This document shows, piece by piece, positions 19,884 to 58,190 of a DNA stretch of 64,000 nt; within the stretch, counting starts at the first letter, position 1, and each line of letters opens with the position of its first letter. Origin of the DNA: Balanoglossus misakiensis (Eukaryota; Animalia; Hemichordata). The notes under the pieces were generated by a model. It was not told the origin of the DNA and ran no database searches. It saw only the letters and a program-made list of their open reading frames with translations. The translations under genes were made by a program, and so were the position numbers. The stretch lies in assembly GCA_040954595.2 (NCBI GenBank), contig CM082583.2:1684925-1748924 (forward strand). The letters run 5' to 3'.

Positions 19884-20250
19884 TTAAGAAAAACCTTCAT
19901 ATGCAAGAGAAAAATGGTAAATGACAAAGAAAATTTGACTGGTATTACAATAGGTCGGGTTTTTGGCATTTACACATATTGATGTTATCAACCGGGAAGC
20001 ACACTACGTGCTGAAAATAATTGGAGAACTCTCGCCCGGGGTGTCGGCCAGTGGCCACATACATTTCCAGTCCTAAACCTTGCATCAGTTCTGTGGTGCG
20101 GATTAAGAAATAAGATTGGCGCTACAATATGCCCACTTAGTTTGAAATGGATTCTGCATATATACATGTAAACACATTGAAAATGAGATATTACACATAT
20201 AATCATGGGACAAGAAGGGCAAAAATTAAATTATCCAGCAGGTGTTCGAA

Positions 20251-20900
20251 TTATGCAAATTAGAACAGTTGTCTAATATTGCCATGTCAACCACGTTGAA
20301 ATTGTTTTAGGTACCCATATTAATTAAAACCGTGAAAATGCGATATTACACACCATATAAGACAAACCAGGGAAATTTACATGTTAGAGAAGTTTGTCGG
20401 CCATTTTGGATTATGCAAATTAGAACAGTTGTCTAATATTGCCATGTCAACCACGCTGAAATTGTTTTAGTTACCCATATTGATGAAAACCCTGCAAATG
20501 CGATTTTAGGCACCATATAAGACAAAACAGGGAAATTTACATTTAAGAAGAGTTTGGTGGCCATTTTGGATTATGCAAATTAGAACAGCTGTCTATTATT
20601 GCCATGTCAACGACGTTGAAATTGTTTTAGGTACCCATATTGATGAAAACCCTGCAAATGCGATATTACACACTATTAAAGACAACCATAGTAAATTTAC
20701 ATGTTAGAGAAGTTTGTCGGCCATTCTAGATTATGCAAATTAGAACAGCTGTCTAACATTGCAATGTCAACCACGTTGAAATTGTTTTAGGTACCCATAT
20801 TGATGAAAACCCTTCAAATGCGATACTACACGCTATTTAAGACGACCATAGGAAATTTACATGTTAGAGGAGTTTGGCGGCCATTTTGGACTATGCAAAT
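20251..20900. repeat. 160-bp tandem repeat, about 4 copies
   Basis: (T/C)TATGCAAAT recurs at 20251, 20411, 20571, 20731 and 20891. Only about 2 copies are present in the right arm (52550-52780). Confidence 0.85.
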
Positions 20901-23900: not shown

Positions 23901-26039
23901 CCTAGAGGCTTTACCTGTCATTGGCTCACAGTCTGAGAAATCAGCTCTGCAGGGAAGTTAACGATGTAACCCACCATTAAAGCTTGGATTTCCGCTTTTT
24001 GTATTTGATGCCTGGCTGAGGCCTTCTTAGGATCTACCCAACGCTGAGTAGGCTATCCCGTCATTGGCACACAGTCTCAGGGAGGGAGTCAAAAGTTCAG
24101 TATACCATCAAAGCCTTTATATTGTCCATTCTTTTTAGGAGAAGGCTGGCTGCTGTAGAAAAATGTTGATCTCAAATTTATCATGTCCAAAAAGCCAGAC
24201 TTCCAGCCCTATTGGTTAGGCTGGCATTAGGTAAGTACATAATTAATGAGGCAAGACATAATACTCAATCAAATAGTTCCATCACTCCAAGTGTCAAGGT
24301 TGTATCTGCTCCGGATGCTAAAATATAGGAATGTAGGTCAAAGTTTACCCAAGATCACACAAATGTTTGTCAAAAGATTTTGACCCCGAAGTTGTCCATG
24401 TCCAGGTTTCTACTTCAGCTGAATAGCCTAGAATTAGATATGCACATATTTAACGAGGTTACCATTGCTCAGGGGGGTCTTAAATTAACCATCAAATTTT
24501 AGTTTCATATTAATGCATATTAATATAAAATACTGTATCTCTAACCCTACAGGTAAGCCTAGAATTAGGTACATGTACATGCGTAAGTTTTTGACAAGAC
24601 AGTTAAGCTGTAATATATGTACATGAACCTTGACAATTGACTTAAAATAACATAAAGGCAGAACTGATACTGATTGGAGATAGATATTACTAATGACAGT
24701 GATGTTAATTACACCAGGAATGTTTGTCTTAGTATACGGTAGCTAACCGACTGCTTGAGGTTAAGTAATGAAAGTGCCCACTTGCGATTCACCTTCAAAT
24801 AGCTACTTAGTCTTTGGTACATGTACATTGTTTTTCCAATGATTAGACAAAGGATATACATACGTGTAATTAAGGTTGGGTAGCATTTTCAATGTAATAA
24901 GCCCTGCCTTCACTATAATCTTACACCAAATCAACACTGTTCAGTAATGTGATAGGATTCAAAGCGACGCTAGTTACATCATAATTCCCAGCAAGGGGTA
25001 TTAGTTTATTGGGCAAGTGGCATGAGTGAGGCCAGACATTAGTTTTGGAAGCAAAGCGGACAGAACACTGCCGGGCATAGACTAGGTAGTTCTGAATGTG
25101 ACCATGGACGTTACCACATTAGACTCTGTATTGTAAGTTTCTGAAGAATCGCAAAAAACATCAACAGTCTACATGTACTTCAACCTTGTGAGAAGTACTG
25201 TATAACACACAGGATATACTAGTCACTGTTGGTCAGGTTATTACACACTGTGGTCCCATTTGGGGATTACACAAAATTAGGTATGTCTGTGTTCATGGGA
25301 AAAATCATGTGACATTGGCAAGCAGATATGACCTACTGTAAGAACATTTCAAAGGAACCAGACAAGTATTTTAGGGAAAACAACATTCAACAATGACAAA
25401 AACTGCCTCAAACCACATCTATCCAACTATCAACAAATTGTATAATATCTACTTCAATCACCACGCCTACCAAAGTTGAAAGCAATCTGACTAGTAGTTT
25501 CAAAGAATATAAATTGCAAAAATTGCCCCAAGACCACAATATGTAAATTTCACCAAAATGATATACAACATTACTTGGGTTACCTCTTGGAACAAGCATA
25601 CCAAAATTTAAAAGCAATCTAAGGAGTTTCTCAGAAAATGAATTTTGACCAAAAATGACAGATTACAAATTCTGCGACAATTTAAACAAAACCAACTAAG
25701 ATCACCTACCGGAAGTGTCATACTAAATTCTAAAGAAATCAGCCAATCTCTTTAAGAGGAAAAGATTTTTTTTCAAATGGTAAAACAAGACAAAATAATT
25801 GCATAAAAAATAGACAATTCACGATATAAACTCAAAGTATATCAGGTATAAGGACATTACCTACATGCATACAAATGTTCAAAGCAGTCTAACCAGTTGT
25901 TGAGTTTTGATCAATTCCACATATTTCACAGGTTATTTGCGTATTTTTGCAATGACAACTTCATTTAAGCAAAATCCCATCTACACACCAAATATCAAGG
26001 TGATACGCGAAGTGGTTTCATGTTTTGGATCAGGGCAGA

Positions 26040-26137
26040 CATACATCCATATATACATGTAACATGCATACACACATGTACACACACACACAAACACATG
26101 CATACATGCATACATACATACATACATACATACATAC
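26040..26137. repeat. (CATA)n/(CA)n microsatellite within a HINE/DINE-1-like repeat
   Basis: Read directly. The counterpart (GTAT)n-GTCT tract is at about 45143-45185. The HINE-like assignment is inference from the microsatellite plus AAATTT..AAGCAATC-type core repeats. Confidence 0.6.
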
Positions 26138-28325
26138 AGAGGGAAACGGTCTGGTAATCAATGTTGTGACACTAGCATTAGGCCTTAAACCCCGGTGCGG
26201 AAAGTACTGGGGTTCGGATTAACGTGTGTTTGTACAGTTGTTTATTTGGGAGTGGTTGTCGTGCATAATAACTGTGTAATTGATCTCATGTACATAGAAA
26301 ATAATTGAACACTTTACACCTCTATGCGATTGACAGCTGTTTGAATGGCGTGGTTATTGTTTCCCAGGGATGCTTCTGAAAAGCACTGAAACCAGATTTC
26401 TCCCAAAATCATCGTTGTTTCAAAAGCTCGTGTACTTTTTCATCGATAACTTTATGTTGTGTGTGTTTATAAAGCCAACCACTGTCGTTGTGTGGTGTAA
26501 TTATTTATGCTTGGATCTGTTTGGGCTGATTTTCATAGAGCCAAGATCGTTGGTGTTGTCTGTTGTCAGTCAAACGGCATTAAGATTCGCCACTGATTTG
26601 GGGGGTCTTTTATACCACTCATCGGGGTTTAATGTTTACGATATCAGGACAATTTATATCATATGAAGTTTTATGTATTCATAATTATTCAGAGAAGCAA
26701 ATTTTTAAAAATGTGAAATTGTTATCAATCGGATGTGCACTGACAGCATGCTTATATGGAATACAGGTACTCTAACACAATCAGTCATAACACTTTTGAA
26801 CCATCAATAAATAACATATAGAATAATTTTACAGGATTTAATTATTTATATTTGAACGCAAAGCGTAAATTCCCTTGTGCCATGGAATTCACAATCTGCA
26901 ACTGGTGGGGTCCTTCTGCCAGTAAGAAGCATCAGATAAATTCTGCATGCTCATCACCGAGGCAATTTAGGTGTACTTTTGTACTTTGAGAACTGTCGGT
27001 TTTCGCAACTGAAACTCTGCTCACAGGACGGAGGAAAAACTAGAATGACAACAGCTATGTAAGCTAACAAAAGAAACACAGAGCATAGTTCTCCATACTC
27101 ATATTTTAATGCAATAATTTTTGCTGAAATTGGGGCGTCCGTGGGCAGGCAAAGGCAGTTCTAACTCAACTTGCAAATCAGGCCCATGTCTCTTGTTCCC
27201 TGAGACTGTCTGGTTCTAATAATAGCTGTAAGAACATAATCGTTGACCAAACAGTTGGTTCAATTTTGCAACATTTTATGATTTCAAGCTGTGCAATATT
27301 TGCAACTCTGTTTCAACTTTGGTTGGAGGGATGATGATGAAGCCATTTCACTGACAAAATAGCACTACTAACTGACATCCATATTTTTTTACAGTCAAAT
27401 GCATTGCCATCAGAAAAATGCATACGAAAAAATTCTTATGTGAATAATACACACTTTCTTGCACGACTGCAAACTCTGTCACATTTGTGACATTTTAAGG
27501 AAATTCATTCATTGGGTAGCTTTATGAATTCTTAAACAAACTTAGTCATGAAACCTAAATGGTTACCTTACACATCTGGCGGCTCGACTTCTGTGATATG
27601 ATAGTCTTCAATTAATGTGTATGTGATTCCATACAAATCCATATGATTACCTGAACGTACAAAATCAATTAAAAATAAAAAATAAATTAAAAATAAATAA
27701 GTATCTCATACATATGCATAAGTGCTTGTGATAAATATATCCTGTATTTAAATAAACCTGTCATTTATTGACCTCGTTTTCCTATTAACCCAAAGGACTA
27801 GATTGCACTGTAATATTATTACAGCTTCATTTCAATGCAACAGGTACACTACATCATATTGGAGCAAATATGCCAGCTCAACATTGATATAAAGAGTGTC
27901 AAAATATTGGTGGCTACAAAAGCTTGTGTCCCTTCAATCCATCCTCGCACTCAGGTGAAAACGAACGTCATTAGTTTTTGGGAAAAAACCTCTGAAATCA
28001 ATTTCGGTGAGGCCAAATGTGTTCCAACGGCAAACCGTTTCTGGTAAACAAATCAATGGCAAATAATTACTTCGGCGACATACCAATCAGTCAACATGGC
28101 TGCCTAATCGTTGGATAGCCCGGTTTCATCTCGCGATCATTCTATCTTCCGATATGGCGTTGAATGGTTTAATTCGTCTCTTCTTTGCCGACATAGTCGG
28201 GCGACAGCGGTCCAGAAGCATAGGCAGCGACGCCATCTTGTTTACAATGTGAAGTATCGACTGCGCATGCTCAATAATTTTCCGCGTTTTTTTTTTTGCC
28301 AACGGCGCGCGCGCGCGGTGTCTGG

Positions 28326-28628: not shown

Positions 28629-28727
28629 GAGAAAATAACATGCAAGTGCGCGATTATTCATTTGTAAAAAATCAGTTATACATTTGTCATCAACGTTTGA
28701 AAACTTTCAATGATCTTACCTCGGTAA

Positions 28728-29525
28728 GGCTACATTCACAAACACCTCTGGAGGGGGGGCAGGAGAATTGAGGGGGGGGATTTGAAAAAATTGAGGGTAT
28801 GTAAGGGGGGGATTTGAAATAATTTAGGGACTGAAAGGGGGGGAATTGAAAACTTTGACGACTAAATATTTATTTTGAGTCCACAAAAATGCAGTTTCGC
28901 GCCCTTTATTTTACAAAATTTTCTAATGTGGGAGGGGGACCCACACCCACCCCCTCCATTCATCGACACCTTTCAATCTTTGACTGGTTTATCTAGTGTC
29001 CCAGGTCAGGGGACTTGCCCCCACCCCATGATAACTTTGAGCCCCGACGGTTAAATTTGTCCTCCCTAACATACTGGTCGTTGAGTTAATTTGCTTTTGC
29101 CGGGTTCATTAAAATGCAGCTTTGAGCTCTGTATTTTATAAAATTTTCTTACGTGGGAGGGGGACACCCCCTCCCAAACCCACCCCCTTCAATTCTCGGT
29201 TTACAATGTCTCCCAACACAGAATACACATTCTTAAAAATTAAAAACAATGTTCAGTTTTAATACCCACTGATGAGAGGAAACATCAATTTCAAATTATT
29301 TTCATGGGAGCGCTGTTTTTCTTTTTTACAAGATATTAGATAGATAGGTGATGTGTTTCGCTGTGTGAAAGAAAATGGGGGGGGGGGATTTCCAATTTTT
29401 AGCAGTTCGGAAGGGGGGTATTTGAAAATATTTCGGGTTGTGTAGGGGGGCATGTGAAAATTAACGGTAAAAAAAATTGAATTCTCCCGCCCCCCCCCCC
29501 TCCAGAGGTGTTTGTGAATGCAGCC
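28728..29525. mobile_element. PIF/Harbinger-like MITE with TAA TSD
   Basis: TAA-GGCTACATTCACAAACACCTCTGGAGGGGGGG ... CCCCCCCTCCAGAGGTGTTTGTGAATGCAGCC-TAA. Confidence 0.88.
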
Positions 29526-30464
29526 TAAGCATTTCAAATAGGTACAGTTTTATTTAGAACCATCGTATGTGGAAAATAATAAAACACAGAGTGGGGATTT
29601 GCCCTATGTTTGACTTGATCATACCCAGCTCGGTTTGCGTTTTGTCATTGACGAGGGTGTCAGACTTTTACTGAGAGAGTGAGTTTCTATAGCGTAAACG
29701 TTTATCGACTGGACTTTCTGTGCGCCAACAATTACATTATTTGTGGCCGGGGAACACGTGCAACTTTTGATGACTGTTTTTCTAGCGCCGTGTTTTTATC
29801 ACGACCGAGAATACCTGCTTGCGTCACTATGGTCTGCTCTGCACGTACTATGCTTTCCAGTTTATGTAGCTTGAAGTTGTACCACATTTTGGTTTCCGAG
29901 CTGTAGCGAACATAAAACCGAAACTAATAGCTACGTGTTGACCTCAGCGACTGCGTGTTTTTTTTGTTGAGCTCGCTAAATTCCAAGTATTCCCAACCTA
30001 CAGTTTATTCTCATGCAGCTCAGACTGAGGTCGCTTCTAAGAGAAAAAACAACAACATATTTTGGCTGCTGCCAGACCAGGAATGGAAAATCTTGAGTGG
30101 CGCTGGGCTGCATTTCTCTGTAGGACTGTAGTTCTATTGTGCAAGGGTTCGCCAGCATCGCCTTCAGACTTGTTGTCATAGTCACTGGTGGCGGTTTGTC
30201 CTGCACTACTCGTCGTTCTATTTGATGTGGTGGTATTATTCCCAGATGTCTGTGCCGAGGATCCTGCCCGTTTTCCGATTCTCTTCGTTTTGTCGGCCAT
30301 TTGCTTCACTTTTCTGTCATTGTTGCGACGTCAGTCTCTGTTGTTGTTCGAAGGAGGCGAAAGTCCATTCACCATTAATAGCCGAGTTTCCAAGATCGTC
30401 CGTTAATTACAATGCGACGTCACGCTATCATGTCCTAAGAAAGACTACAGGGCACATTTTTTTA

Positions 30465-30620: not shown

Positions 30621-30862
30621 AAATATAATAACTGGCAGCCACTATGATGTCTGCCACAGGCAAATTTAAATATTCCACTCTGGATCTTCTTTCAGCCCTT
30701 CGGAAAACATGAGCATTTATGAAATCCGGCTCTCAATTTTTCGAGAAGTTCCAGCAGTTGTGGTGTCGCCAAAACCGAATGTATGCCATTCCTGGCGGAA
30801 AAAAATATGCAAGAGACGCTTGCAATACACTGCCATCTACCTGACCGCCCTACATGCCTTAA

Positions 30863-31657
30863 GATGGGTCCCTGGGATCTTTTTGCCCGTTGCTATGGGC
30901 CTTTATAGGACATTACACCCCGATTTGGACTAAGCCGTTTTCAGAGTCTAACAAGGGGCTGGTAACTAGTTGAAAATCTGCACGATTGTGAGCGCGCGCC
31001 CCCTGACGCCATTGATATGCAAATTAGCTAGGTCAAATTTCAAAAGCCTAAGGCTTTTTATTCCGTGACCTCAAAAACGAACTTGATGCGTATTCATTAG
31101 TTGCTTGAACCAGGGAAGATCGTGACGGATTTTGTTTTCAAATATTATCGTTGTATCCTACGATTTCAGCATACCCGTACCACACCTGAAAAAGTCATCG
31201 ATTTTGGGGTTTTTTGGACGCACTCTTCCACCGGTATCGCTTCTTAGCACGACGAAAACCGAAAAAACGATCCGTCACACTATGCGGAAGTGCGTTCTCA
31301 ACAAGCAGGTCAAATTTGGCTGGCGTACGTGGCCTATGAAAAAAGCCTTAGGGATTTTCGTGAACGGTACAAAATCTCTGTGTACAAAACATTGGATTTT
31401 TAGCGTTCGATCCAGTTACTGTGGTTACAGGACGCGCACGCTATCGCTGACCGCTGCTTTGCCGTATTAGCATGGCGGCCTATGGCCGGGCGGTAGCTGC
31501 CGTAACCATACTCGGACAGGGGGTGTGCACACAATCGTGCGTATTTTTAACTAGTTACAAGCCCCTTGTCGGACGTTCATAACGGTTTCGATCAAAATTG
31601 AGTGTAGTGTCCTATAAAGGCCCATAGCAACGAGCAAAAAGATCCTAGGGACCCATC
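30863..31657. mobile_element. MITE with long TIRs and TTAA TSD (Kolobok-like)
   Basis: TTAA-GATGGGTCCCTGGGATCTTTTTGCCCGTTGCTATGGGCCTTTATAGGACA ... TGTCCTATAAAGGCCCATAGCAACGAGCAAAAAGATCCTAGGGACCCATC-TTAA. The TIR similarity extends for about 130 bp. Confidence 0.85.
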
Positions 31658-32657
31658 TTAATGTAAGGTAGAAGGTCGGGCGGTAGGAAGAGTTCACCAA
31701 AAGAGGGCGCATTTTATCATCCATTGATTTATACTGTGTACGAGCAGAGAAGCCTCAGTGTTCGCGGTTAGAACCGTATCGGTAAGACAAAGACAGAAGT
31801 GTTGACAGACAACAAACTTATTCAGTTTATATCATATAATTCTTACTGTAAAACGTTCCCTGAATAAAGCCTTGTGCTCATAAGAACATTGAAGATTGTC
31901 GCATACAGACCGACACCCTTTTATCTATTGTAGGTATTGAATGGAACGCTAAATACCTGTGTATTTCTTATTCATTAAGCAATGATGTAACACAACAAGT
32001 TTCGGACAGTGTGAAGAAAGGGCCAAAGCACTCTTGCAAGTTAGTGTGGTGTACTCTTTTCCAACACTGCTGCAAGCTGTTCAGCACCTGATGCTGCTTG
32101 TATCTCCGATGACAAATGGACAGTCTGTGTGCTGTCAAAGTAAATCCATCAATTTTGCGGAGCTGAAAGGAAAATGACAGCTTGTCAAACTCAAATCTGC
32201 CAGACGAAATAGGGAAAGAAATGCATAACAGGTAATCCACCATACTATGAATTTTAGCCAGCATCCTATGAAATGCGGTGAAACGGAACTGCAATTAATT
32301 TTAAATGAATTCTGCTCAAATTGTTTTCTTAGTTCTCAACATTGGATTGGAACCGTTAAATATAATGTACTGTATAACATTATCATATAGGTTAGTATGT
32401 CAAATATTTTTCCATTTGGCATTTTCTTCTTGAGGTCATTTCAACAGTATGCACACCACAGTTTGTGAGATATGGACAGAAACAAACTGGAATCTATGCA
32501 ATGTTATAATAGTATATTATTGTTAACAAGAAAGCGGCAACTCTCTACCTGGCAGAGAATAATGATAGTCTTTTTGAAAAAAAAGGGCGTGCTGAGGATA
32601 TGGTCAGTCAAAAACATACATGTATAAGGTATGCCTGAACTAATTTTTAACATGGTG

Positions 32658-32690
32658 CACAAGCGTTTGCCCCATAGTAACTTAGTTAGA
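32658..32690 (+). repeat. Left (gene 3'-side) bipartite TIR
   Basis: CACAAGC, then 15 bp, then ACTTAGTTAGA (starts 32680). Confidence 0.88.
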
Positions 32691-33246
32691 TTAAAATGGC
32701 CGCCATTTATGTAAGTGCGCCCTCAACAACTATCTTTGTGCGCATTCCCTGTAATGGGGAGGGCATTACATGCGCCTTGTTTGCATGATTTAAACATCAC
32801 TTAAAATGCACTTTCATGTATAGACTACCGATGAATTTCACTGTAATCGAACACTATATTATTTGTATTTCTATTTTGATCTTACAGTGAATAAAAATGA
32901 CCATTTGAAGCCAATCATTTACAATCACCACGTACCTGGCCTGAATGTTTGCTTTTATTATGTTCACAAACTTAACACACCATTGTTCTGGTTGTAAAGG
33001 CGGGTACAGGTTGGCTAGTAGTGAGGGGAACATGTACATTCAGTCTAGTTACTCGCTAAATTTTCAAGTACTTGGTACATTATCTGAAAGTCACACAATT
33101 ATTCACACAAGAGGCAATATGCAGGTTAAAGAGTTTTTATTATTAACATTTTACACATCAAATATATATGTACAAAATTGGCATGGTAACAATCACAAAA
33201 ATACTTTAAATCTTGCATTGTGATCTATTTACATTCGCATTTACAT

Positions 33247-33557
33247 TTACTTTTTATAGGGGCCTCTTGACTTGATTTCAGGTTTTGTATGTGTCGGGCT
33301 AGTCCTAATATGGTGGTCTTTCACTAGTTGCTCAAGTTTGTTCAGGCGGTCACCAGGCATACACGCATAGCTCACTGAAGCCTGGTTAAAGGCGTGGTGG
33401 ATTGACTCTATCCCCTGCTCGCCGAAGAACCCTAGCCCTCGTTTAAATAATCTGATCTTCTCCATTATGTGACACTCAAGCATGTGCAATTTTGGAAACA
33501 CACTTTCCTCTGGAAAATGTGTCCTATACAGGTTCATGAACCTGGATACGGCAGTAT
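33247..33557 (-). CDS. Transposase exon 10 with HxxxxH Zn ligands and catalytic Glu
   Basis: DTAVSRFMNLYRTHFPEESVFPKLHMLECH...GLGFFGEQGIESIHHAFN, then stop at 33247-33249. Confidence 0.88.
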
Positions 33558-33945
33558 CTGAAATAAATTATATTTGGAAATGTCAATATTTTTTACTTCA
33601 AAGTTATAATTTAGTTATTCAATGTTACAATAGTGATGTGCCATAAATGATAAGCATTATGTATTGTACGGCATACACTTTGGGAAAGGTATGGGTGGTG
33701 GAGAGGGGCGAATGGCCGGGAAGTGAGATGAGATGCGCGTGGTGTTGATACCAAATTCAAGTCTGATTTATTGTAACTTTACGCAAGCTATATATACATG
33801 TTGGTGAACCTTGACTTTTGTTCACACCTGATACCGGGAGATTCACACTTGACAGTGGGCTCAAGTTTGGTGACTGACTTATTCCCTGCTTGCTGTGTGC
33901 AAGTGGAAGAGGGGGTGGGGGTGCCTGCATGCATGCTGTACTTAC

Positions 33946-34129
33946 CCAATTCTTCAATTTCAATGTGTGTCAATTTTCTGCTGTGGGAATACTTGTTGTG
34001 GCAGTTTGCAAACTCCGTGAACAGTGGTTGGTGTTTGTGTACTATTTTCCGGGCTTTTGGGAGCAACTCTGGGCATACCTGCTCAGTCACATTTACAACA
34101 CTGTTGCATAGTAGATTCACATTTTGTGG
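33946..34129 (-). CDS. Transposase exon 9
   Basis: PQNVNLLCNS...LFTEFANCHNKYSHSRKLTHIEIEEL; acceptor TTCAG, donor GTAAGT. Confidence 0.8.
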
Positions 34130-34548
34130 CTGAAAAATAGGCAGTCCAATCATTAATCTTTTCATTTACAGGGCAAGTATAATGTTTGTTTTTTTCACTA
34201 TGAATTAAGCCTGTATTTCAAGACTGTAACTGATTAACTATATCAAATACTAAACACTTACATTTAACTAAAATCAAAGAATGTTATAAATGTTCTGTGA
34301 ATTAAAATTTGATTAAAGTATTTATTAATTCAACCTTCGGTTACTCACCAACTAGAAAAATATTGTTAAACATCCAACCTAAAAATAAAAAAAAACTAAC
34401 AGAAAAATGAAAAATAAAGATAAAATGTCCAAGGGAACTTGGCTATATATAAACTTTCAGTACAATTTATTACACAATTAGGGCAAACAAACTTCAACAA
34501 CTTCATGCATGGCAATTAAGTAACCATAACAATTATTCTTACACAGAC

Positions 34549-34701
34549 CTTGCAGCATCGGTTTACATGATTGCCTATGAATGACTGACTATGGTAGGCT
34601 TGCAAATAGACATTGATAGAAGCAAGTGCTACTTCAAGTCCCCTATGCAAGTATCCAGCTTGATGGGGAAGCTTTTTCTGCAATATTACAATTTCTGCAG
34701 C
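34549..34701 (-). CDS. Transposase exon 8 (not in the ORF track)
   Basis: AAEIVILQKKLPHQAGYLHRGLEVALASINVYLQAYHSQSFIGNHVNRCCK; acceptor TTTAG, donor AAG|GTCTGT. Confidence 0.75.
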
Positions 34702-34822
34702 CTAAAAGTTAAACACACCCAATGATTACATTCAAATGAAAAATTAGTCATGTTATACCTGAAAAGAAGACAAATCACATTTTTTTTTTATAAATCAGTA
34801 CCAAATATGATAATGCATTCAC

Positions 34823-35194
34823 CTTTTTGTCTGCAATATCAGAGAGTTTCTTTCTTTTACGTTCCATATGTTTTACTTGTCCAAGTGTTGGTGGCCAGTC
34901 CTCATCATCACTATCATCATCACTAGTATCAGTGAAGGCAGCTTCAATGTGGGATGTCAGTAAATCATACTCAACATGTATTTCATTAATCTCTGAATTG
35001 AGGTGAGATATCTTCGAAATGTGACTGACATATTCATCAAAGTGGGCAGGTTTCATGACTGGCACATCTATTTCCTCCCCCGCCCCCACTAAACGAGTGA
35101 AGATTTCGGCATCAAGTAGATGACAAGAATTCTGCAGGAGACGAAAGAGCCTCTGAAATATGCCCAGGGAGATGTGCAAAACTGGAATCGAAAC
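34823..35194 (-). CDS. Transposase exon 7 (LHISLG motif plus acidic helical insertion)
   Basis: VSIPVLHISLGIFQRLF...DTSDDDSDDED...DKK; acceptor CATAG, donor GTGAAT. Confidence 0.85.
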
Positions 35195-35295
35195 CTATGA
35201 GAGAAATTAAGCATAACACATTAATTATGACTTCTTGTTTTTATCTGAAATGAAGATAGAGAAAAATGAAATTGATACATCTATGAAGAACATAC

Positions 35296-35497
35296 CCTAC
35301 ACAGTGGAATTCTAAACATTTGATCCCTGACGCAATTGTAATACTCTTTAGCTTGAGTAAGGACCTTCCCTGCACTGACAAAATTATTGTGTGCATCTCT
35401 GATTGACTCTAGTGTTCTTGGTGGAATATCCGGCCGCTCTTCTGGTGGTAGGTTTGCTTGCTCTTTTGTGGTCAGACACCACAGGCAAAGTATCGTC
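35296..35497 (-). CDS. Transposase exon 6 with CxxC Zn ligands (-1 frameshift at 35487-35489)
   Basis: Adding one T gives GRYFCLWCLTTKEQ...PRTLESI...YNCVRDQMF. The exon is 202 nt where 203 is needed for phase. Confidence 0.8.
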
Positions 35498-35606
35498 CTG
35501 TTGATGAAACAAGGAAAAAAGACTGCCGACACATTCTATTAAAAAAAATGACATGCAAATATTTAGAAACATGTTACAATCAAAAGAATCAGCATGCAGC
35601 ACATAC

Positions 35607-35683
35607 CACTTGGACCAGACAATCCATACATCTTCACCAGAAATTCATAGTCACCTGCAAGCCAAACAAGAACTTGTGCATCT
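35607..35683 (-). CDS. Transposase exon 5 with second catalytic Asp
   Basis: DAQVLVWLAGDYEFLVKMYGLSGPSG; acceptor CACAG, donor GTATGT. Confidence 0.85.
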
Positions 35684-35956
35684 CTGTGGACAAAAAATAA
35701 ATACATAAAAACAAATGAGTATCAATGTTACCTTTCTACCTTATTTTCTATCTGTCTGTCCCCTCATTTTACATCCCAGGCTTTTCTTTCTGCCCCCATC
35801 TCTTTGTTTCACTTTGATCTGTTTGTCAGTGTATCCAATTGTGTTCTATTTTAATTTCAGTCTCTTTGTGTCTGTCTTCCTTCAGTTCCATTTGTCTGTT
35901 GTGTCAGTCTCTCTCTTTTTGCTAACAGAGATACATGTACTATGATTAATGCTTAC

Positions 35957-36202
35957 TTCCACCTTAGACCATTTAGTGAGTCAACTTGCCCACTGTTTAA
36001 CTTCATGGCAGTGTTTAGGTTGGTCAATTTATCCGGAGCTTCAAAAACACTCCAACACACAGTGTTGTTGATGCTGTTGAGGTGATCCACATTCATTATC
36101 TCAAATGCCCATTTCATGGAACCACCACCATGGTCACCTCCAACCTTTACCCAGACTTCAGAAGATGGAATAAGACCATCATGCCAGGTCAGTTTCTGTA
36201 GT
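35957..36202 (-). CDS. Transposase exon 4 with first catalytic Asp (not in the ORF track)
   Basis: Manual translation LQKLTWHDGLIPSSEVWVKVGGDHGGGSMKWAFEIMNVDHLNSINNTVCWSVFEAPDKLTNL. Acceptor TTTAG, donor GTAAGC. Asp codon at 36133-36135. Confidence 0.85.
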
Positions 36203-36496
36203 CTAAAGAGAGAAAAACTGGCTCAACCCTTAAATCAAAACCATGCAGCTTTACCAAGGATGTACCTCCAGGCGATACATGTGACCTTACATATTACAAT
36301 GAAAAAAAAAAATTAAGGTGTGCTAATGCATGTTTTCCTATTCAACAAGAAAAATTTGTGAAAACTCACCACAGTGATAAGGAGATAGAAATACAAGTCT
36401 TAAAAGGCAAGCTGCTATTTTACAAAGCCAGCCAGTTATGAAACACACAATCAACTATCTATAAAGTCAATAGCAGTAAAACAAAACAAATCTTAC

Positions 36497-36712
36497 CTGT
36501 CTAGGGTATCAAGTCTACCTATTACTGTTTCAACAAGATTAGATACAGCTACACATGGTGCCAGCCGTATTTCACTAAGTTTACCACTACCCGTACCATT
36601 TACTGTAAATGTGAAGGGTAGGTTCTTCATTTGGAGCTGAATCTCAAGTGACTTCATTCTCTCACGGTCTTTGTTTTCTCCTTCAAGTCGAATATTCCAC
36701 ATTCTTAGCCAT
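36497..36712 (-). CDS. Transposase exon 3 (acceptor mutated CAG>CGG)
   Basis: Open frame WLRMWNIRLE...GRLDTLD, donor AG|GTAAGA, phase matches both neighbours. Confidence 0.7.
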
Positions 36713-37132
36713 CCGCATTTGAAATGAAACTTCATATTTGATGAAACCTACAATCAGTGACCTAAGTGATTAATGTAGCACAGCTAGGTGACAGTTTAAG
36801 AAGTTTGAAATTTAACAACATAAAACCTCATTCTTTAAGCATAGAGATTATAATAAAATGTGATAATTTTTAGTTAATCATGCAGAATATCTCAGACAGC
36901 TATTGTAATTGCTAATAGGTATATATCATATTGTTGTTAAAACATCAATAAAACATGACAATTATTGCATAAAGAACAGATAGAAATTAAAGCTGCAAGC
37001 AGCATTGTCGGGCCCAAGCGCTGATCTCGAATTATATATGCACAGTATGAATGAGAAGAAACAGAATTTTCTATCGGGTGTATTATCTCATGACATAACA
37101 AGGACGTGTGCGCTTGGGCCCTAACAACTTAC

Positions 37133-37419
37133 CTTCTTATTTTCCGCATGGTTGACCAGGTGACCCCAACATCACTCTTTAAGAGAAGTCCAGCACCAGG
37201 TGGAATATCTGGACTGAGGCCGAGAGAAGATAGCAGGGATTCTTTTTCCTCCTTCTTCATCCTTTGGATTTCATTTCCTGTCTGAATGTGTGCTGATTTA
37301 CCACCACCGCTTACTTGGTGCCTCACTTCAGATAAGCATTTTGATCTTAAGACCAGAGTTTGCTTTGAACACTCAGAACTTTCCTTTCTTGGCTTCCGAA
37401 TTTTGGACAGCATAATTGG
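37133..37419 (-). CDS. Transposase exon 2 (basic helical region at the position of the RAG1 nonamer-binding domain)
   Basis: Acceptor TTGCAG|CCA, donor AG|GTAAGT; PIMLSKIRKPRK...VTWSTMRKIR. Confidence 0.75.
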
Positions 37420-37608
37420 CTGCAAGTACAAAAAATATCTTAAGTTTCTACAAGTATCGTCTACGCATCAATTTAAGTTATATTACACTGATGTAGCAGT
37501 ACGGTTATAACTAACAAAATCAATAATTGTTCCCCCTAGTCAAATCAAAAGTAAATACTCAAGGGTGAATTATTTTTAAGACAAGAATAAAGGAAGAAGT
37601 ATACTCAC

Positions 37609-38677
37609 TTGACCACCTGTTTTGAATTTAATTAAACCACTTGATTCAAATTCCAGCTTCTTCTTGACAATAGTTGTGGCGAGTTGTTCAAACATTGGCA
37701 GAGTGTGGATATCGGCTGATGTCTGCAGTAACGTTTTAGCGGCTTGAACAGGGGTTACTTCAGGTTTGCCAATCTCTTCATTTATTTGTGATTGTTGGGG
37801 ACTGGGATTATCAATACTGACCTGTCCCTTGTTGACACGCATGTTGAAGGGGCATGGTGAGGCATAATTATGTTCCTTGGCGATAGTTTTGAAGGCACAT
37901 TGATTTGTGTGAGAGCAAAGGTCTTGTAGTGGCACAACTTCTGAACAACCAGCATTTGCAATGTCACACACAATATTTAGAGACGACAGCATATTTGACA
38001 ATACTAATGGGACAATGACAATATCACCTGGCATAATACGTAGGCGACAGATGGGGAATGTGGTTGATTCTTCAAACCACTTACATAAACAAGTAGAACA
38101 AAAAACATGGGGCCCACTACACAGAAGTTGAACTGGCTCGTCAACAACATCTCGGCAAACTGGACATTCAAAATCTTGACTCGCAGAGGAAAAGCGTGAC
38201 CTTGACAAGTTTAATGCAGACCTTAGCTTCTTGCCAGCTTTCTGCTGTACAGCAAGGATACTGTTTTCTGATTGTATATGTCCTTGGTCTCCATCAAGTT
38301 TTTTGGTTTGTGTCATTGGAGGTCTTCCCCGGTTTTTTGCTGCTTTCCGCTTTCGTTCACTTTTGCAAAGAGTACACACACTGCATTCACCAAGTCTCGG
38401 ATGTTTTTTTCCAACCAGTTAACTGTACCCCATGATTGTACTGTTTACCTGTTTCTTTTGCCTTTGTAATAGATGTTATAAGCCGCTTGCAGTTACTACA
38501 GAAATGGGTTGGGTGAATGCCAGGGTCATCCGTTGAAATATCTATTTCAAAACATTCACCTAAAGCGTCTCCAATATTTGCGCACAGAAATGGCTTCTCT
38601 GCAAATTTACGGCTGCAAATCCGACATCTATTCAGCAATATGTTATTGTGGAACTCGAGAGATTTCCGCCCGGTCAT
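37609..38677 (-). CDS. Transposase exon 1: RAG1-like N-terminal Cys/His region, C3HC4 RING and Zn finger (+1 frameshift in A7 run at 38404-38410)
   Basis: ORFs 38387-38749 and 37576-38379 join to give WKKHPRLGECSVC if one A is removed. RING: CPVC...LLCSGPHVFCSTC...TFPIC. Zn finger: LNIVCDIANAGC...LCSHTNQC. Donor CAA|GTGAGT. Confidence 0.85.
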
Positions 38678-39290
38678 CGTACTGGCTGCAGCACCCGACA
38701 AATGTGCAGACGACAACGTAGTTCGATCAAATTTGGCGCCAGTGTACACGTAAACAATACAGTAACCATGGGCACGGTCAGCTTAAGGGGTCATCGAAGC
38801 ATCGAACCACACAACATATGCCGTTCAAAAAAAAAAAAACCCAAAGCAAGGAAAAAACACCCCGACAAAATCATCACACTCAAAACACAAAATATTCGAC
38901 AACGAACACATAAAAATCGGTTTGATTAAAATATAATTCGATTTTCGATGTTATCTTAGCTGTAAATTACAGTTCACAAAAACGGGATTCGATGCTGTTC
39001 ACTCGCCATTGTTTACATGTCGATTGCAAACGTACCTGCGTCATGATCCAAATGTCTTCCAAATCACGCGGCAAGATCCATATAAACTCCAAAAAATTAC
39101 AGTTTATGCGATAAAAAAGCATATTTCTCGAGTACGAACTCGCAAAAATATCGGAAACGGCTATATTCAGTGATGTTTTTCACCGATGGCCATGCATTCG
39201 CATGGGCGCGCACATGTTGATCTTGCAAAGTCTCGCCATATCACGCAATGGAACGTGAAGAAAATGGCTGTTGCTTTGTTATTTATTTCC

Positions 39291-39332
39291 TCCAACTAAG
39301 TAGGGCCTGCCGCTATGGCTAAAACGCTTGTG
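39291..39332 (-). repeat. Right (gene 5'-side) bipartite TIR
   Basis: Reverse complement reads CACAAGC, then 24 bp, then ACTTAGTTGGA. Confidence 0.88.
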
Positions 39333-40593
39333 GGTGTACATAAATATTTATGCATTGTCACAATGACTGGAGGTCTTTAAATGACCAAGCTGTATGGACA
39401 CCTCATTCAATGTTACATATATTTGTTATTACATGTTTTATTGAAATTGCCAGTTGTCTGTTTTAATTCTGGCAGTTCTGCTGTGTCTTTTGTCTTGCCC
39501 TGACAGAATGCAGTAATATTTGCAGTACAAGAGGAGTGTCAGTAAATAGTGGAGCAATATCTTTCTACGAATGTACTCATGCATTGCTCCAAAGTGAAGT
39601 ACATTCGCAAAACCAGTTTGGGAAATCGGGACTCTTTTCAAGATTATACCACATTTTTGTGGATGTCACATGACATGGAAACACTCTAGAATCACGATTG
39701 AGATAAGGTTTCGGTTTGATATACCACTTCCTTGTTATTTCAATCTGTATGTTTTCTTAACCCCCTCCCTCGAAAAAAGGTAATTGAGGTAATTGTAAAA
39801 TTACCTGAAAACAAACAGGCTACTCTAGCCTCCATTTTATGAGGTTTGTGATGTAACATATTTTGAATTTCGTGAATCGATCAAAAGTTTCCGTGCACCA
39901 ACTATCAAAACTACACCAAAAAATAATTTGGGCAATTCATAAGGAGAATCTAGTGGGTCGGCGGCTATAGAACTGACGTAAGTGTAAGTATCAGAGGATT
40001 GTGGGTACGAGGCTGGGAAGAGCAACACTCGAACACTCATGAAATCAACACGTGACGCCAAATTCTTTGTAATATGAACAGTGGAAAACTGCCATGCCAT
40101 CCCTCTAAGTGCAAACTTCCAAAGATTTCAATCTGGTGATATTTAAAAAAAATATTTTATTCAAATTCATGTGGTGATATTTAAAAAAAAATATTTTATT
40201 CAAATTCATGTTATAAATTAAACTTGCATCTATGATATAGAAATGACTCTGTCTTATATAACAAAAATACAAATAACTTGGTTAGATGACCAAAGATTTC
40301 CCATCTCGAAAAGTTTCTACCAAAATGACTAACTCCAAATCTGCTAAGAGAGCCCTAGCAAATTTAATCACTGCACATTACTCTCGATAAAACGAAATAT
40401 TGCGCATTCATTTTGTCCTTGAATTGAAATGCATGGCCAGTGTTCATAGACTTCACACACACAGGATGTTTAAGGAGTTGAATTGTTATTGACAGCGACC
40501 AGGTCGGTAGATTCTATAGGATGAAGAAAAAATGAAAAGACAGTCAGTACATAGCTAAATTCTCCTATACAAGGGCGTCTTCAATTGGTACAG

Positions 40594-41749: not shown

Positions 41750-44700
41750 TTAGTCAAGACAATTTGGGAGAACTGTAGTTTAAAGCCTCCAAAGCTGCCA
41801 CTTTTTGCATTATTTTCATGATTTTATTTTCCAACTTAAATTGGTTCATCAAATAAGCTTACTGATAGGTATACATAAACATCTTATCGATGCCCGATTG
41901 TGACTGCATGTTGCAATTGGAACATGCTATGTATTAAAACGGTGCCTCACCGATTTAATCAGCCTTCATACAAACAATAGCAGCTAAGCAGCTATCGTGA
42001 AATGCGACGCCAAGTGATGACAAACCAATGCAAATGCAAGTAATATGGCTTAATGGTCACGGGTGAAGATTTTAGGGAATAGGGAATATACATATGAAGT
42101 ATTTTACTCTGGAAAAAAATATGCCAATTTTAGCAGCTATAGGGTTTTTAAAGCGCGGGCGAAGTATGAAAAGATGCAGTAAATATCGATACATTGTATT
42201 TTGGAGGTTTCTCATAACCATGATTGGTTGGCTAATTATGCGGCGTTTTCTAAATAAAAGGAACAATATTAATTTATTGTTGGGGCTCACCTCCGTTAAC
42301 ATCTTGCCGTCTCTGCTGAGTGTTGGCCTCTTCCAGCGGCACGTGTTTGTCCTTTACAGCATGCTGTAAAATATTTAGAATAGCGCTGCCATTTGATCAA
42401 AGGATAAGCTGGCTTCGCGTGTTAGGGATGTGTGTCTGACGACTATGCCTCGAAGCAAAAGACACGGCCGACCCTGCCACGCAGATTCATTTGTTGTGTC
42501 ACACATTTTCGATCCAAGAAGAGAATATCAACCTTGACGTTGCGAAAATGACAAGAAACTTTCACTCATATAGGTTGTGTGATTACTTACCCGCAACTTG
42601 TTGGGAATTGCTGTCACCAGAGGTGCCCACAGCGTGAAAGCCAGAATGACTGCGACGCCTGCATTGGAGTTCGTCATGAATGGAAACATCGATGAACACG
42701 TTCGGTCTTCGATGAGGCTAGTGTCCACAGAATAGGCATTCTTTTATAACGCAGCTGGGAGGTGGTAAATCCATTGTGATCACCATGCTATTAGTAGCCC
42801 AAGCAGTCAAAATTTGCGAAAAATATATAAATATGGAAAAATATATCAATGGGATCAATAGTTATTAAGCACTTTTTAAAAACAAATGACACCGTAAGAT
42901 CAATTATCTTGTTTTCCGCGACAAGTTTCAACATGGTATGTCAGCGCTACCAGTGAATAATATTATTAGAAACTATGACAGCTGTAACCGTGCGATTAAT
43001 GATTTGATCAATTTTAATCATATACTTGTAAATATTTGTGCGGGTGCTAGTTTAATAAACTGTGTTGATATATAGGTGGAAGACTGTTTAGTTTTCCAGT
43101 CAATTATGTGATGTATTACGCCTGACGCTTAAATGATTTGGTCCAGGGAGAATAACCGTGTTTGGCCGGTCAAGCGAACCCTGGATCTTGCAGGCTCTGC
43201 CCACTTTCCAATCAACAACCATTGAGCATGCGCAGTTGATACTTCACATTGTAAACAAGATGGCGTCGCTGTATATGCTTCTGGACCGCTGTCGCCCGAC
43301 TATGTCGGCAAAGAAGAGACGAATTTAACCAAGCAACGCCATATCGGAAGATAGAATGATCGCGAGATGAAACCGGGATATCCAACGATTTGGCAGCCAT
43401 GTTGATTGAATGGTAAGTCGCCGAAGTAACTATTTGCCATTGATTTGTTTACCAGAAACGGTTTGCCTTTGGAACACATTTGACCTCACCGAAATTGATT
43501 TCAGAGTTTTTTCCCAAGAACTAATGATGTTCGTTTTCACCTTTCTGTCCCGAAGTTGCAAACGTGTTGTCTCTGAGAAAATAAATGTGATTTGTACCCG
43601 CGATAATCATAGTTCGGATTTCAACCCACAACATCAACGCCAGCCATTCACCAACATGTGCCAGATAATGTTTATCAGTCATATTTTCTCAGTCTGAATT
43701 TACAAAAGACTAATTGTATTGTATGCACATTGCAATTTTAATATGTAACACGTTTGACCTGAGTGGGAGGATGGATTGAAGGGACACAAGCTTTTGTAGC
43801 CACTTAAATTTTGACACTGTTTATATAAATGTTGAGCTGGCATATTTGTTCCCTTATGATGTAGTGTACCTGTTGCATTGAAATGAAGCTGTAATATTAA
43901 AGTGCAATTTAGTCCTTTGGTTTACTGGGAAAATGAGGTCAATAAATGACAGGTTTATTTAGATATATGATATATTTCTCGCAAGCACTTATGCATATGT
44001 ATGAGATACTTATTTATTTTTAACTTATGTATTTATTTTTAATTTATTTTGTACGTTCAGGTAATCATATGGATTTGTATGGAATCACATACACATTAAT
44101 TGAAGACTATCATATCACAGAAGTCGAGCCTCCACATGTGTAAGGTAACCATTTAGGTTTCATGACTAAGTTTGTTTAAGGATTCATAAAGCACGAATTC
44201 TACCTAATGAATGAATTTTCTTAGAATTTCACAACTGTGACAGGGTTTGCAGTTATGCGAAAAAGTGTTATTATTCACATACGAAACTTTTCGTATACAT
44301 TTTTCTGATGGCAATGCATTTAACTTTGAACAAATATTGACGTCAGTTAGTAGTGCTATTTTGTCAGTGAAATTGCTTCATCATCATCCCTCCAACCAAA
44401 GTTGAAACTGAGTTGCAAATATTGCACAGCTTGAAATCATAAAATGTTGCAAAATTGAACCAACCGTTCGGTCAACGATTATGTTCTTACAGCTATTATT
44501 AGAAGCAGACAGTCTCAGGGAACAAGATACATGGGCCTGATTTGCAAACTGAGTTGGAACTAACCTTGCCTGCCCATGGATGCGCCAATTCAGTGAATCT
44601 TATCGTATTAAAAATGAATATGGAGAACTATTCTCTGTGTTGTGATTCAATTGTTAGCCTACATGTATACATATGTACCTTGAGTGATTCCACTTTCTTC

Positions 44701-46697
44701 AGTGTCCTGTGAATTCAGTTGCCATAACTTGCGCTTCACACAGCGCATACATGTAGGTCTAATCAATTGGGTAACTGGGTCTTACAATATTATCTGATGC
44801 CTCTTACTGGCCGAAGGACCACAAGTTGCATTTTCACATCGCATATAAATAGAAAACCCATTAATTTCTACTGTATGATTTTATTGACGATTCAATAGTT
44901 TCATGACTGTTAGTGTTAATTACAATACCTAAATTCCCAAATGAAAGCATGCTGTCAGTTTTCATGTGATTGATATTAATTTTACAATTTCAAAATATGC
45001 TTAGCTCTGAATGATTATGAACATATCAAACTTCATGTTAAATAAACTGTCTTGATATTGTATACATTAAGGCCTACTACCAGTGTCACAACATTGATTT
45101 CCTGCATTTTTGCTCATGCCTTCTGACCAGTCAGTTGCCTCTGTATGTGTGTATGTAGTATGTATGGATGTATGTATGTCTGTCCACATCAAAAACTTGA
45201 AAACCCCTTCGCGTATCCCCTTGATATTTGGTGTGTAGATGCAGGCCAGCCTGTAAATAGGATTTTGTTCATATTAAGAAGGTTGAAGTATTTTCATGAT
45301 TGGTTTTATTTGATTACTCCAGAAACATACAATACAGAGTCTGTGTGGTAAGTATTGATATTGGGTTTTTAGATGCAGGCACGCCTGTTCAAATGAAATA
45401 TGCTAATTACCTGGAGCAATGTGAAATTGATCAAAACTCAGAAACTCAACAACTGGTCAGATTGCTTTGAACATTTGTATGCATGTAGCTTATGTCACGC
45501 CTGATATACTTTCAGCTAATATCGTGAATTGTATCTAGAATTTAGTATGCTATTTCCTATAGGTAATATTTGTTAGTATTGTTTAAATTGTGGCAAAATT
45601 TGTAATTTTTGGGAAATATAATTTTATCATTTTTAGTCAAAAATCATTTTCTCTGAAACTCCATGTCAGGTCAGGTTGCATTTAAATTTTGGTTTGCTTG
45701 TTCCATGAGGTAACCCAAGTAATGTTGTATATCATTTTGGTGAAATTTGCATATTTGTGGTCTTGAGGCAATTTTTGCAATTTGTATTCTTTGAAACCGC
45801 ATGTCAGATTGCTTTCAATTTTGGTAGGCATGTTCCTTGTGGTGATTGAAGTGAGATATTGTTGGATTTGTTGATATCTGAATTTTTGTGGTTGAGGCAG
45901 TTTTTGTCATTGTTGAAGAAATGTTGTTTTCACTGAAAATACTCCGATTCCTGTGAAATTGTATTAGGTTACCTGGTAGGTCATATCTGCTTGGCAATGT
46001 CACAGCGGTGTACACACCTATTTTTGTGTAATCCAAAGTGTCTAATAACCTAGCAAATATTTACTAGTAAATCATGTATGTTCTACTTCTTACAAGGTTG
46101 AAGTATGTTGATGTCTGGGTTAAATGGGATTCTTCAGAAACATACAATACAGAGTTTGTGGTACAGTTCATGGTCACATTCAGAATTACCTAGTCTATAT
46201 CCAGCCATATTCTGTCCGCTTTGCTTCCAAAAGTATCATCTAGTGTCATGCATGCCACTTGCCCAATAATCTGACACCCCTTGCTGGGAAATTTGATGTA
46301 ACAAGTGTCCCTTAGTGAAGTTATTAACATAAACTGAACAATGTTGATTTGGCGTAAGATTATAGTGAAGGCAGGGCTTATTACATTGAAAATGCTATCC
46401 AGCCTTAATTACACATTATGAATATCCTTTGTCCAATCATTGGAAAAACAATGTACCATAGACTTGCATAGCACTTTGAAGGTGAATCGCAAGTGGTCAC
46501 TTTCATTACATTACCTCAAGCAGTCTTTTACATGTAGCTATAATAAGACAAACATTCCCGGTGTAATTAACATCACTGTTGTTATTAGTATCTATCTCCG
46601 ATAAGTATCAAGTCTGCCTTATGTTATTTTAAGTCAATTGTCAGGTTCATGTACATATTTTACAACTTATCTATCTTGTCAAAAACTTTCGCATGTA

Positions 46698-47635
46698 CCG
46701 TATATTCTCACAAATAAGCGCCACCCTTGATTAGGCGCCAGTGATACCTGACTTTGCTACTTTTTACTTAAAATTAAGCGCCAGGAAATTTTTTTTTTTG
46801 AGGTGTGTGGACGTACGTGAATCATGGCAAAAAATACCGGGGTAACACCTGTTTAGGGGTCTTGTCAAAATCAACGGGGGGGGCTTGCTGCGTGAATAAT
46901 AATTGACCTGAGCAGACAATGCATGCTTTGGGCTGATGTGCTATTTATTTACAAGATGAAATCGGGCACATGTCAACCTCCTAATTTATGTAAATTATTA
47001 TTCATTGCAAAAGATACAGGTGCCGGGCGTCTAGACACTCGTCTTTTTCCTGTCGATCGATCGGCAGCCGCTTACGTTACCGACACTACCACCCAAGTTT
47101 GACCATATTGCCAGGGCTTTGAAATAATAGGACTAGTTTCAAGTTGTGAATGTTTGCGGTATTAATTTTCTCATGAATATTCACGCAACGTGAGTATTCA
47201 CGCAACCTTGCCTGACCTTACATGTGTGAGAGCATTACAAAGACGCACTTGGACTAAACTACTATACGTCAGTAGATTTTGTTGATGGTTCAGCCAGCAT
47301 ACTGTAATGCTGCTCGTAGTATTCACTTCGTTGACAACTTTTTATTTCTGGAATATTTATTAGACAATACATTGAACTGACTGTATTTGAACAGAAAATG
47401 TTAAAACTTTACATATGAATTCGAAACAGCCATTCATTCACTGCGGACACCCCCTTACGAGAACACTGATTGGAACGTCCCAAATCATTTGCATATGAAT
47501 CAACAGGGTACAGTATACAGGGCGACCCATGAATTAAGCGCCATCGGTTCTTGAAAGACTCATTTCTGCTTTTGTTTAGGCGCCACCAAAATTTGAAATG
47601 GTTAAAAAGTGGCGCTTATTTGTGAGAATATACGG
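46698..47635. mobile_element. Tc1/mariner-pogo-like MITE with TA TSD
   Basis: TA-CCGTATATTCTCACAAATAAGCGCCAC ... GTGGCGCTTATTTGTGAGAATATACGG-TA (27-bp perfect TIR). Absent from the left arm (about 24570). Confidence 0.9.
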
Positions 47636-56355: not shown

Positions 56356-56460
56356 TCTGGGGACAAAAAGAAAAAAAAGAAAATTAACGGTTAGTGGGTC
56401 CTCGCCTGTGACGAGTCATAGCCCTACCCGATGGCATTTTCCCCTTTTCCCTGTGTTCCC

Positions 56461-57951: not shown

Positions 57952-58190
57952 CGTGCATACCTTGGGGTCCTCCTATTCCGCCTGTGTACCTTCACTGAAG
58001 TAGGTGTCCTCTCCCATGGAGTCTATTCCGATTGACTTTAGTATTTCGTCGAAATCGAATCCTTCTCCTGGGTCCTCTGGGGGGTCTGCGAGGTGGTCAC
58101 TCGCTTCGTCTTCTTCGCTGCCTAAGTTTACCGTGCAGACGTCTTGCCTAATGTCATTGGATGGTTGTGAGGCTAACGGTATTACTTCGT

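Follow-up and report, generated by a model that had tools for sequence, protein, structure and literature searches.

RSS-like short and long ends in a Chapaev transposon of Balanoglossus misakiensis and its relatives

Whether a transposon that lacks RAG2 can carry ends built like the 12/23 recombination signal sequences (RSSs) of V(D)J recombination is the question raised by a DNA transposon of 6,675 bp, located at positions 32658–39332 of a 64,000-nt stretch of the genome of the hemichordate Balanoglossus misakiensis (GenBank assembly GCA_040954595.2, contig CM082583.2, positions 1,684,925–1,748,924 of the forward strand; the whole stretch is hereafter called the window). Work on RAG evolution has yet to settle when and how the 12/23 rule originated and whether RAG2 is required for it. 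In the accessible portions of the literature, to which all statements on cited papers here refer, ends differing by one helical turn have so far been assigned to no more than a small number of Transib families and certain RAGL elements. The element is a broken copy of a Chapaev cut-and-paste transposon and otherwise an ordinary Chapaev. Comparison at the level of sequence confirmed that the asymmetry of its ends is conserved in Chapaev families and not private to the window copy, and this RSS-like arrangement of ends, in a transposon group already known, is real and conserved and appears to be undescribed. Because the ends differ by about one turn, as they do in most of the distant relatives checked, we favour, with a probability of roughly 0.55, the reading that the RAG1-like transposase is most active on a short end paired with a long one, by means of a tilting dimer of a segment resembling the nonamer-binding domain (NBD) of RAG1.

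Two unequal bipartite ends

Both ends of the element open with the same terminal inverted repeat (TIR), CACAAGCGTTT, identical at 11 of 11 positions, and 17 of the first 20 bases are common to the two. A second block, ACTTAGTT(A/G)GA, follows in each, with its first base at offset 23 in the left end (32680) and at offset 32 in the right one (39301). The original prediction, made from the sequence alone, had read these ends as CACAAGC with 17 of 20 bases shared and second blocks at offsets 23 (32680) and 32 (39301–39291), and its coordinates and counts are right. It had further described them as a heptamer followed by spacers of 15 and 24 bp. The unequal spacing is real; the terminal unit, however, is not a heptamer but an 11-bp CAC-N4-GTTT, and the block that is conserved among families extends about 3 nt further towards the terminus, with G at position −3 in 12 of 16 ends and C at −1 in 13 of 16. 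The consensus of the second block is about GnCACTTAG, which is not an A-tract nonamer. With the block beginning about 3 nt before ACTTAG, the distance from 7-mer to 9-mer comes to 12/21 in the window and 10–11/21–23 in the relatives. The difference of 9 bp, close to one helical turn, thus stood for the window copy and is at the low end of a range in which relatives give 10–11.

In the window alone, an 11-mer with at most one mismatch was shared between random stretches of 30–40 bp in 0.8–1.9% of about 2,000 draws, and a shuffle test of the two ends gave 0 of 1,000 for positions 12–45 and 1 of 1,000 for positions 12–60. A third shared word that had been proposed, GCCATTT at offsets 45 and 65, was rejected as part of the end signal, being common in the window (26 occurrences) and out of register in the relatives. 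The near-palindrome that contains it on the left (Table 1) is presumably akin to a site for a YY1-type host factor.

Boundaries and identity of the element

Contigs of the sample (runs X1 and X2) include the empty site, in which 32653 is joined to 39333 with four letters that fit either side; this joint confirmed the boundaries and the target site duplication (TSD) of 4 bp. At the right end the sample contigs continue into the same flank, no variant being listed in 39150–39332. They contain a single insertion site there and no second flank, the empty form of the target being the deeper one, and for this reason no independent copies of the window element could be drawn from the sample.

Chapaev transposons are said to go back to Kapitonov and Jurka in 2007, and we take DUF1280 to be a marker of the group. 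The identification rests on the Chapa and RING fingers, the DDE core motifs, the termini and the TSD, all of which match published hallmarks: CAC..GTG termini, TSDs of 3–4 bp and C(2)C, LH and H(4)H motifs (PMC4079192), with two subgroups that carry a Chapa finger and then a RING finger (PMC4411706). The window element ends in 5'-CAC ... GTG-3', its 4-bp TSD is that of Chapaev outside Chapaev3, and it shares with the Chapa and RING subgroups the order of the two fingers, the C(2)C/LH/H(4)H core and the single gene. In a quick tree, which comprised the fetched loci only, the window family was at most 39% identical to any of them.

The transposase gene lies on the minus strand from 38677 to 33247, with 10 exons totalling 3,117 nt. 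The window copy is broken at three places: there is a frameshift at about 38404, the acceptor ahead of exon 3 reads GG, and the frame is interrupted where exon 6 begins; the sample contigs differ from the window at the frameshift and at the GG acceptor. Pfam searches with the window protein placed the RAG1_imp_bd/Chapa finger (PF12560, E 5e-7) above the cut-off and RING families (E 3e-5) below the curated one. The core motifs GGDH, GDYEF, CLWC, LHISLG, HMLECH (H-x4-H) and GEQGIE were all found, and the third catalytic acid, in exon 10 (codon 33408–33406), aligned to RAG1 E962. The original prediction of a RAG2-less element with a 4-bp TSD was borne out by the GGTG copies with the empty site and by the contents of the element, in which no RAG2-like gene was found: there was no open reading frame (ORF) with kelch or PHD domains, about 590 bp separate the stop codon from the short end, and five plus-strand ORFs had no curated Pfam match. 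The CCGHC tail was absent from the C-termini of the window protein and of 13 loci. Short high-depth repeats lie in the transposase introns at 37019–37110 and 33698–33834, with many loose ends in the sample contigs.

Descent from a RAGL/ProtoRAG or Transib element that had lost its RAG2L gene, which would make the ends true RSS homologues of that lineage, would account for the CAC termini and for a Chapa/NZD finger, RING finger and RAG1-like core in RAG1 order over about 1,039 codons. We regard it as very improbable. It is contradicted by the TSD of 4 and not 5 bp and by the lack of a RAG2-like ORF in the element; in addition, the core is DUF1280 with no Pfam RAG1-core match, the structural identity to RAG1 is about 15% in the predicted model of a relative (P0015, below), the CCGHC tail is missing and the intron positions are those common to other DUF1280 elements. 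Five sea-slug DUF1280 transposases (P0003, P0004, P0005, P0019 and P0023) are named 'amine oxidase' in public records, apparently a mis-annotation.

Conservation of short and long ends across Chapaev families

Relatives were collected as 57 loci from 231 pattern matches in a metagenome scan. Their ends were called first by terminal identity and TSD, without use of the second block; of the co-variation of the two ends, the part at positions 1–7 is built into this rule. Eight families besides that of the window had both ends callable, most other loci being too short; no ends were found for L001 and L002, which belong to an intronless clade, or for L016 and L052, and L057 gave only a decayed one. 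The ends of L007 were also supported by a homology boundary with L011, and the 3' end of L045, with CAT as its first letters, came from a profile scan that made use of the block; its TSD was the reason for accepting it. Protein identity among the families was 24–61%, the window protein being 26–35% identical to seven of those with both ends and 36% to L045. The TSD was 4 bp in all 12 distinct TSD-flanked insertions of relatives; four end pairs had none (L004, L014, L015 and L048), which would be explained by collapsed contigs.

The block offsets (5'/3') were 32/23 in the window element, 32/22 in L004 and L007, 22/32 in L014 and L021, 22/33 in the L025 group, 21/32 in the L035 group and in L028 (placed by eye), and 21/34 in L045; one copy of the L035 group (L047) had 31 instead of 32. 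Short offsets therefore span 21–23 and long ones 32–34. In three families the long end precedes the gene, and in the other six it follows it. One branch of the quick tree (SH-aLRT 85, not firm) holds all six families with a short 5' end, so a single switch of polarity may suffice. A blind test, in which 51 diagonals of one end against the other were scored outside the first 11 positions for one representative per family, gave as the top diagonal 9 for the window element, 10 for L004, L007, L014 and L021, 11 for L025 and L035, and 13 for L045. Seven of nine families fell at 9–11 (six of eight without the window; with a null rate of 0.23 the binomial p is 0.003), and in none of the nine was the top diagonal symmetric. 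In 557 kb, 45 exact ACTTAG matches were located behind 338 CAC-N4-GTT words, where shuffles gave 1.6 in all: 17 at offsets 21–23, 18 at 31–33 and none at 24–30, the remainder being 7 at offset 15, which all represent an internal site in a single family, and 3 elsewhere. The eight long spacers were 29–30% alike, compared with 68% for the 6-bp block, and family-specific letters were common to both ends within a family, 26 bp in L004 and GGGCACTTAG in L035. The family comparison that had been proposed as a check thus had the outcome foreseen, with block and short/long spacing kept across divergent families while the spacer sequence varies.

That the second-block match is due to chance, or the 9-bp difference to an indel of this one copy, which the original prediction had named as a refuting outcome, could still be argued from the window element by itself, for which the chance odds are about 1–2% and for which the sample contigs held only one insertion site at the right end. 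The blind diagonal test and the 557-kb scan refute both, and we consider them extremely unlikely: the same ACTTAG occurs at the same offsets in four families 31–35% identical to the window protein, and the sample contigs list no variant in the right end.

Several other loci were noted in this comparison. L001 has TTAG at offsets that match 32/22 and was not counted, as it had neither a TSD nor support in the blind test. Viral contigs gave 7 and 29 pattern matches, none confirmed, and thus no relative. In L007 (3532–8475; TSD ATGA, 4 bp) both ends begin CACAGTG, the consensus RSS heptamer of PMC1131882. In L033 (12906–13144) a short-type end lies 238 bp beyond a long end in the same orientation, and in L026 (8400–19567) members of two distinct Chapaev families, both flanked by TSDs of their own, are packed into about 11 kb.

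Predicted fold of the transposase

The Chapaev transposase is predicted to have a RAG1-core fold. The AlphaFold model of the relative P0015, based on a 20-sequence alignment (predicted local distance difference test, pLDDT, 78.8), had RAG1 as its best Foldseek match (E 3e-16) and superposed on mouse RAG1 in VIA-align with a Z score of 28.8 and a root-mean-square deviation (rmsd) of 3.7 Å over 464 residues. Corresponding Z scores were 25.8 for RAG1L, 25.7 for HzTransib and 11.4 for the P element; overall, the solved folds nearest to the model were RAG1, RAG1L and Transib (Z 17–29), with the P element, ISCth4 and Hermes at about 11 or less.

The order of domains is alike in RAG1 and the Chapaev enzyme, including a segment at the NBD position. 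With two RAG1 chains the alignment of the model extended over residues 391–459, the NBD (522–526 residues, rmsd 8.2–8.4), while HzTransib aligned only from model residue 330. The family profile aligned to RAG1 101–490 through the NBD (E 3.6e-12) and followed the NBD helices; it paired K-T-G-G-Q-P with the RAG1 hook, G-G-Q-P replacing GRPR/K. In exon 2 of the window gene this segment has predicted helices (pLDDT 92.8), and its basic residues are kept across families.

A possible pairing rule and its alternatives

We propose that the core of a transposase dimer would bind the terminal 11-bp CAC-N4-GTTT, and that the three-helix segment of exon 2, positioned like the RAG1 NBD, would dimerise and read both GnCACTTAG blocks. 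As the blocks are one helical turn apart and on the same face of the DNA, the hinged NBD-like dimer could tilt and favour a short with a long end, as in the 12/23 rule, with no RAG2 involved. A pivoting-NBD mechanism has been described (PMC1131882; 10.1101/2023.08.20.553239). By analogy with RAG and Transib, cleavage would proceed by a nick and a hairpin on the flank and be followed by a 4-bp staggered insertion. Cleavage of this kind is established for the RAG and Transib enzymes. The best indirect argument for pairing is that the ends co-vary in sequence within families, yet no top diagonal is symmetric.

A number of results weigh against this reading. Taken alone, the NBD-like segment had no RAG1 match by phmmer or by a 21-sequence profile, its Foldseek result was not significant (E 4.7) though RAG1 chains ranked first and second, and a search of the ESM Atlas returned nothing significant. 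Of 87 homologues, 38 could be scored for the motif GRPR/K where the NBD begins, and 0 of these 38 had it. The E-value of the profile match to RAG1 101–490 owes much to the Chapa finger, since the family profile matches the RAG1 NZD (21wb) by itself with E 1e-11. Among the families, L028 had an unrelated top diagonal, the blind test detecting in it no second block common to both ends (p 0.48), the ends of L045 differ by 13 bp, and the support from L007 was weak (shuffle p 0.056); as the families are kin, the tally indicates conservation and not independent origins. Finally, mouse RAG1 without RAG2 has no preference for 12/23 over 12/12 RSSs (PMC8355894).

This last observation is also in keeping with an arrangement that was inherited with no pairing rule attached, both spacings keeping the block on the same helical face and being equally accepted. 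ProtoRAG relies on the terminal 15 bp or so with the NBD auxiliary, and asymmetry is expected to make no difference to invertebrate RAGL (PMC7204232). Symmetric ends are the rule among Transib families (PMC1131882), and L028 and L045 depart from the pattern. We nevertheless think it unlikely, given that none of the nine families with both ends is symmetric, though ends co-vary within each, and that the polarity of short and long ends differs between lineages. A similarly low probability is assigned to the idea that asymmetry is required through some other device, be it unequal numbers of protomers as in piggyBac or hAT, or a Chapa finger or host protein reading the block. piggyBac needs both asymmetric ends and a tetramer (10.1101/2022.09.26.509586), and the non-significance of the NBD-like segment by itself, the block without an A-tract and the missing GRPR/K hook would all fit. 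On the other hand, each end carries one block of the same sequence and only its spacing differs, by about one turn, which is the geometry of RSSs, and in the predicted model the fold lies nearer to RAG1, RAG1L and Transib than to the P element, ISCth4 and Hermes.

A stronger form of the preferred reading, with one short and one long end paired, would have a genuine rule of the 12/23 type imposed by Chapaev transposases with no RAG2, through an NBD-homologous dimer and GnCACTTAG at 10–12 and 21–23 bp, the rule predating the split of Chapaev from Transib and RAG and being ancestral for the enzyme with Chapa, RING, NBD and core. We put this forward only tentatively and think it rather less probable than its opposite. 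Young multi-copy families with matching TSDs (the L025 and L035 groups) are single-gene systems that lend themselves to a direct test of the pairing rule.

Relation to known systems

The likeness to RSSs that had been proposed holds for the bipartite ends unequal by one turn, and the predicted fold of the enzyme is RAG1-like; the likeness does not extend to an A-tract nonamer or a GRPR/K hook. V(D)J RSSs, RAG1/RAG2 and PflRAGL-A, which has 10-bp asymmetric TIRs (10.1101/2023.08.20.553239), share with the Chapaev ends the one-turn difference, a variable spacer and a second block at about 18–20 and 29–31. The window element differs from RAG and PflRAGL-A in its 4-bp TSD and in having no RAG2, no A-tract nonamer, no GRPR/K hook and no CCGHC tail, and its terminal unit is 11 bp with family-specific positions 4–7 in place of the RSS heptamer.

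RAG2-less ends like RSS12 and RSS23 were described in 2005 for five Transib families, Transib5, Transib2_AG and TransibN1-3_AG (PMC1131882). Transib resembles the window element in its single gene, absence of RAG2, CAC start, unequally spaced bipartite ends and RAG1-like core; it differs in its 5-bp TSD and A-tract nonamer, in having no Chapa or RING finger, and in that most of its families are symmetric (PMC1131882), whereas in the Chapaev sample asymmetry with a GnCACTTAG block is the majority state. Chapaev adds a more distant, RAG2-less group with RAG1 N-terminal domains, in which short and long ends persist across deep divergence with a different second block. The wild-type piggyBac enzyme likewise requires asymmetric ends, served in its case by a tetramer and a C-terminal domain and not by an NBD-like dimer (10.1101/2022.09.26.509586). 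The TIR and target of piggyBac are unrelated to those of Chapaev.

Published descriptions of Chapaev give CAC termini, TIR and TSD and, in their accessible text, no bipartite or unequal ends (PMC4411706, PMC4079192, PMC12730594). The termini of Chapaev3, which has a 3-bp TWA TSD, had no ACTTAG within the approximately 30 bp displayed in the supplement of PMC4079192. The accessible portions of PMC4411706, PMC4079192, PMC3014272, PMC12730594, 10.64898/2026.01.24.700457 and 10.64898/2026.08.26.747230 make no mention of such ends. The literature searched contained no report of 12/23-like Chapaev ends; the Repbase Reports of 2007 or a 2008 paper on N-RAG-TP, both outside its reach, could hold an earlier description.

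Features and surroundings of the element

Table 1 Features of the Chapaev element, in window positions
Feature	Position	Strand	Remarks
Left TSD copy, GGTG	32654..32657	+	direct flank match, empty-site joint
Short end, terminal 11-bp TIR CACAAGCGTTT	32658..32668	+	3' of gene; CAC-N4-GTT(T) pattern in relatives
Short end, second block ACTTAGTTAGA	32680..32690	+	offset 23; block at 21–22 in relatives
Near-palindrome with GCCATTT	32694..32708	+	outside conserved end signal
Exon 10	33247..33557	-	H-x4-H motif, G-E-Q-G-I-E, stop codon, no CCGHC tail
Exon 9	33946..34129	-	helical insertion region
Exon 8	34549..34701	-	QAYH..SFIGNH motif
Exon 7	34823..35194	-	LH motif, LHISLGI
Exon 6	35296..35497	-	C-x2-C motif CLWC; frame broken near start in window copy
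Exon 5	35607..35683	-	second catalytic Asp (G-D-Y-E-F, codon 35652-35650)
Exon 4	35957..36202	-	first catalytic Asp (VKVGGDHGGGS, codon 36135-36133); Pfam DUF1280 E 3e-11
Exon 3	36497..36712	-	acceptor reads GG in window copy
Exon 2	37133..37419	-	three-helix basic segment at RAG1 NBD position and start of DDBD-like region
Exon 1	37609..38677	-	Chapa/NZD zinc finger, RING finger, second zinc finger; frameshift in A-run at about 38404
Long end, second block ACTTAGTTGGA	39291..39301	-	offset 32; block at 32–34 in relatives
Long end, terminal 11-bp TIR CACAAGCGTTT	39322..39332	-	5' of gene
Right TSD copy, GGTG	39333..39336	+	direct flank match, empty-site joint

The element lies within the central 15 kb or so of a large, patchy inverted duplication, the arms of which (22388–28275 and 43221–49823 of the window) are 78–95% identical. 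Two MITE-like (miniature inverted-repeat transposable element) elements, at 30827–31693 and 28727–29526, have inverted arms of 175 nt (77%) and 33 nt (97%). Broken ORFs for reverse transcriptase, RNase H and integrase occupy 55255–59730 on the minus strand; we take them to be Gypsy-like, the integrase ORF presumably ending in a PHD-like zinc finger. Broken endonuclease and reverse transcriptase ORFs at 6231–8826 on the plus strand are presumably LINE-like (long interspersed nuclear element). Tandem repeats comprise an 86-bp unit in an array of about 102 copies (10278–19060), a 160-bp repeat (20250–20911) and two 69-bp arrays in inverted orientation (60094–60475 and 61373–61768).

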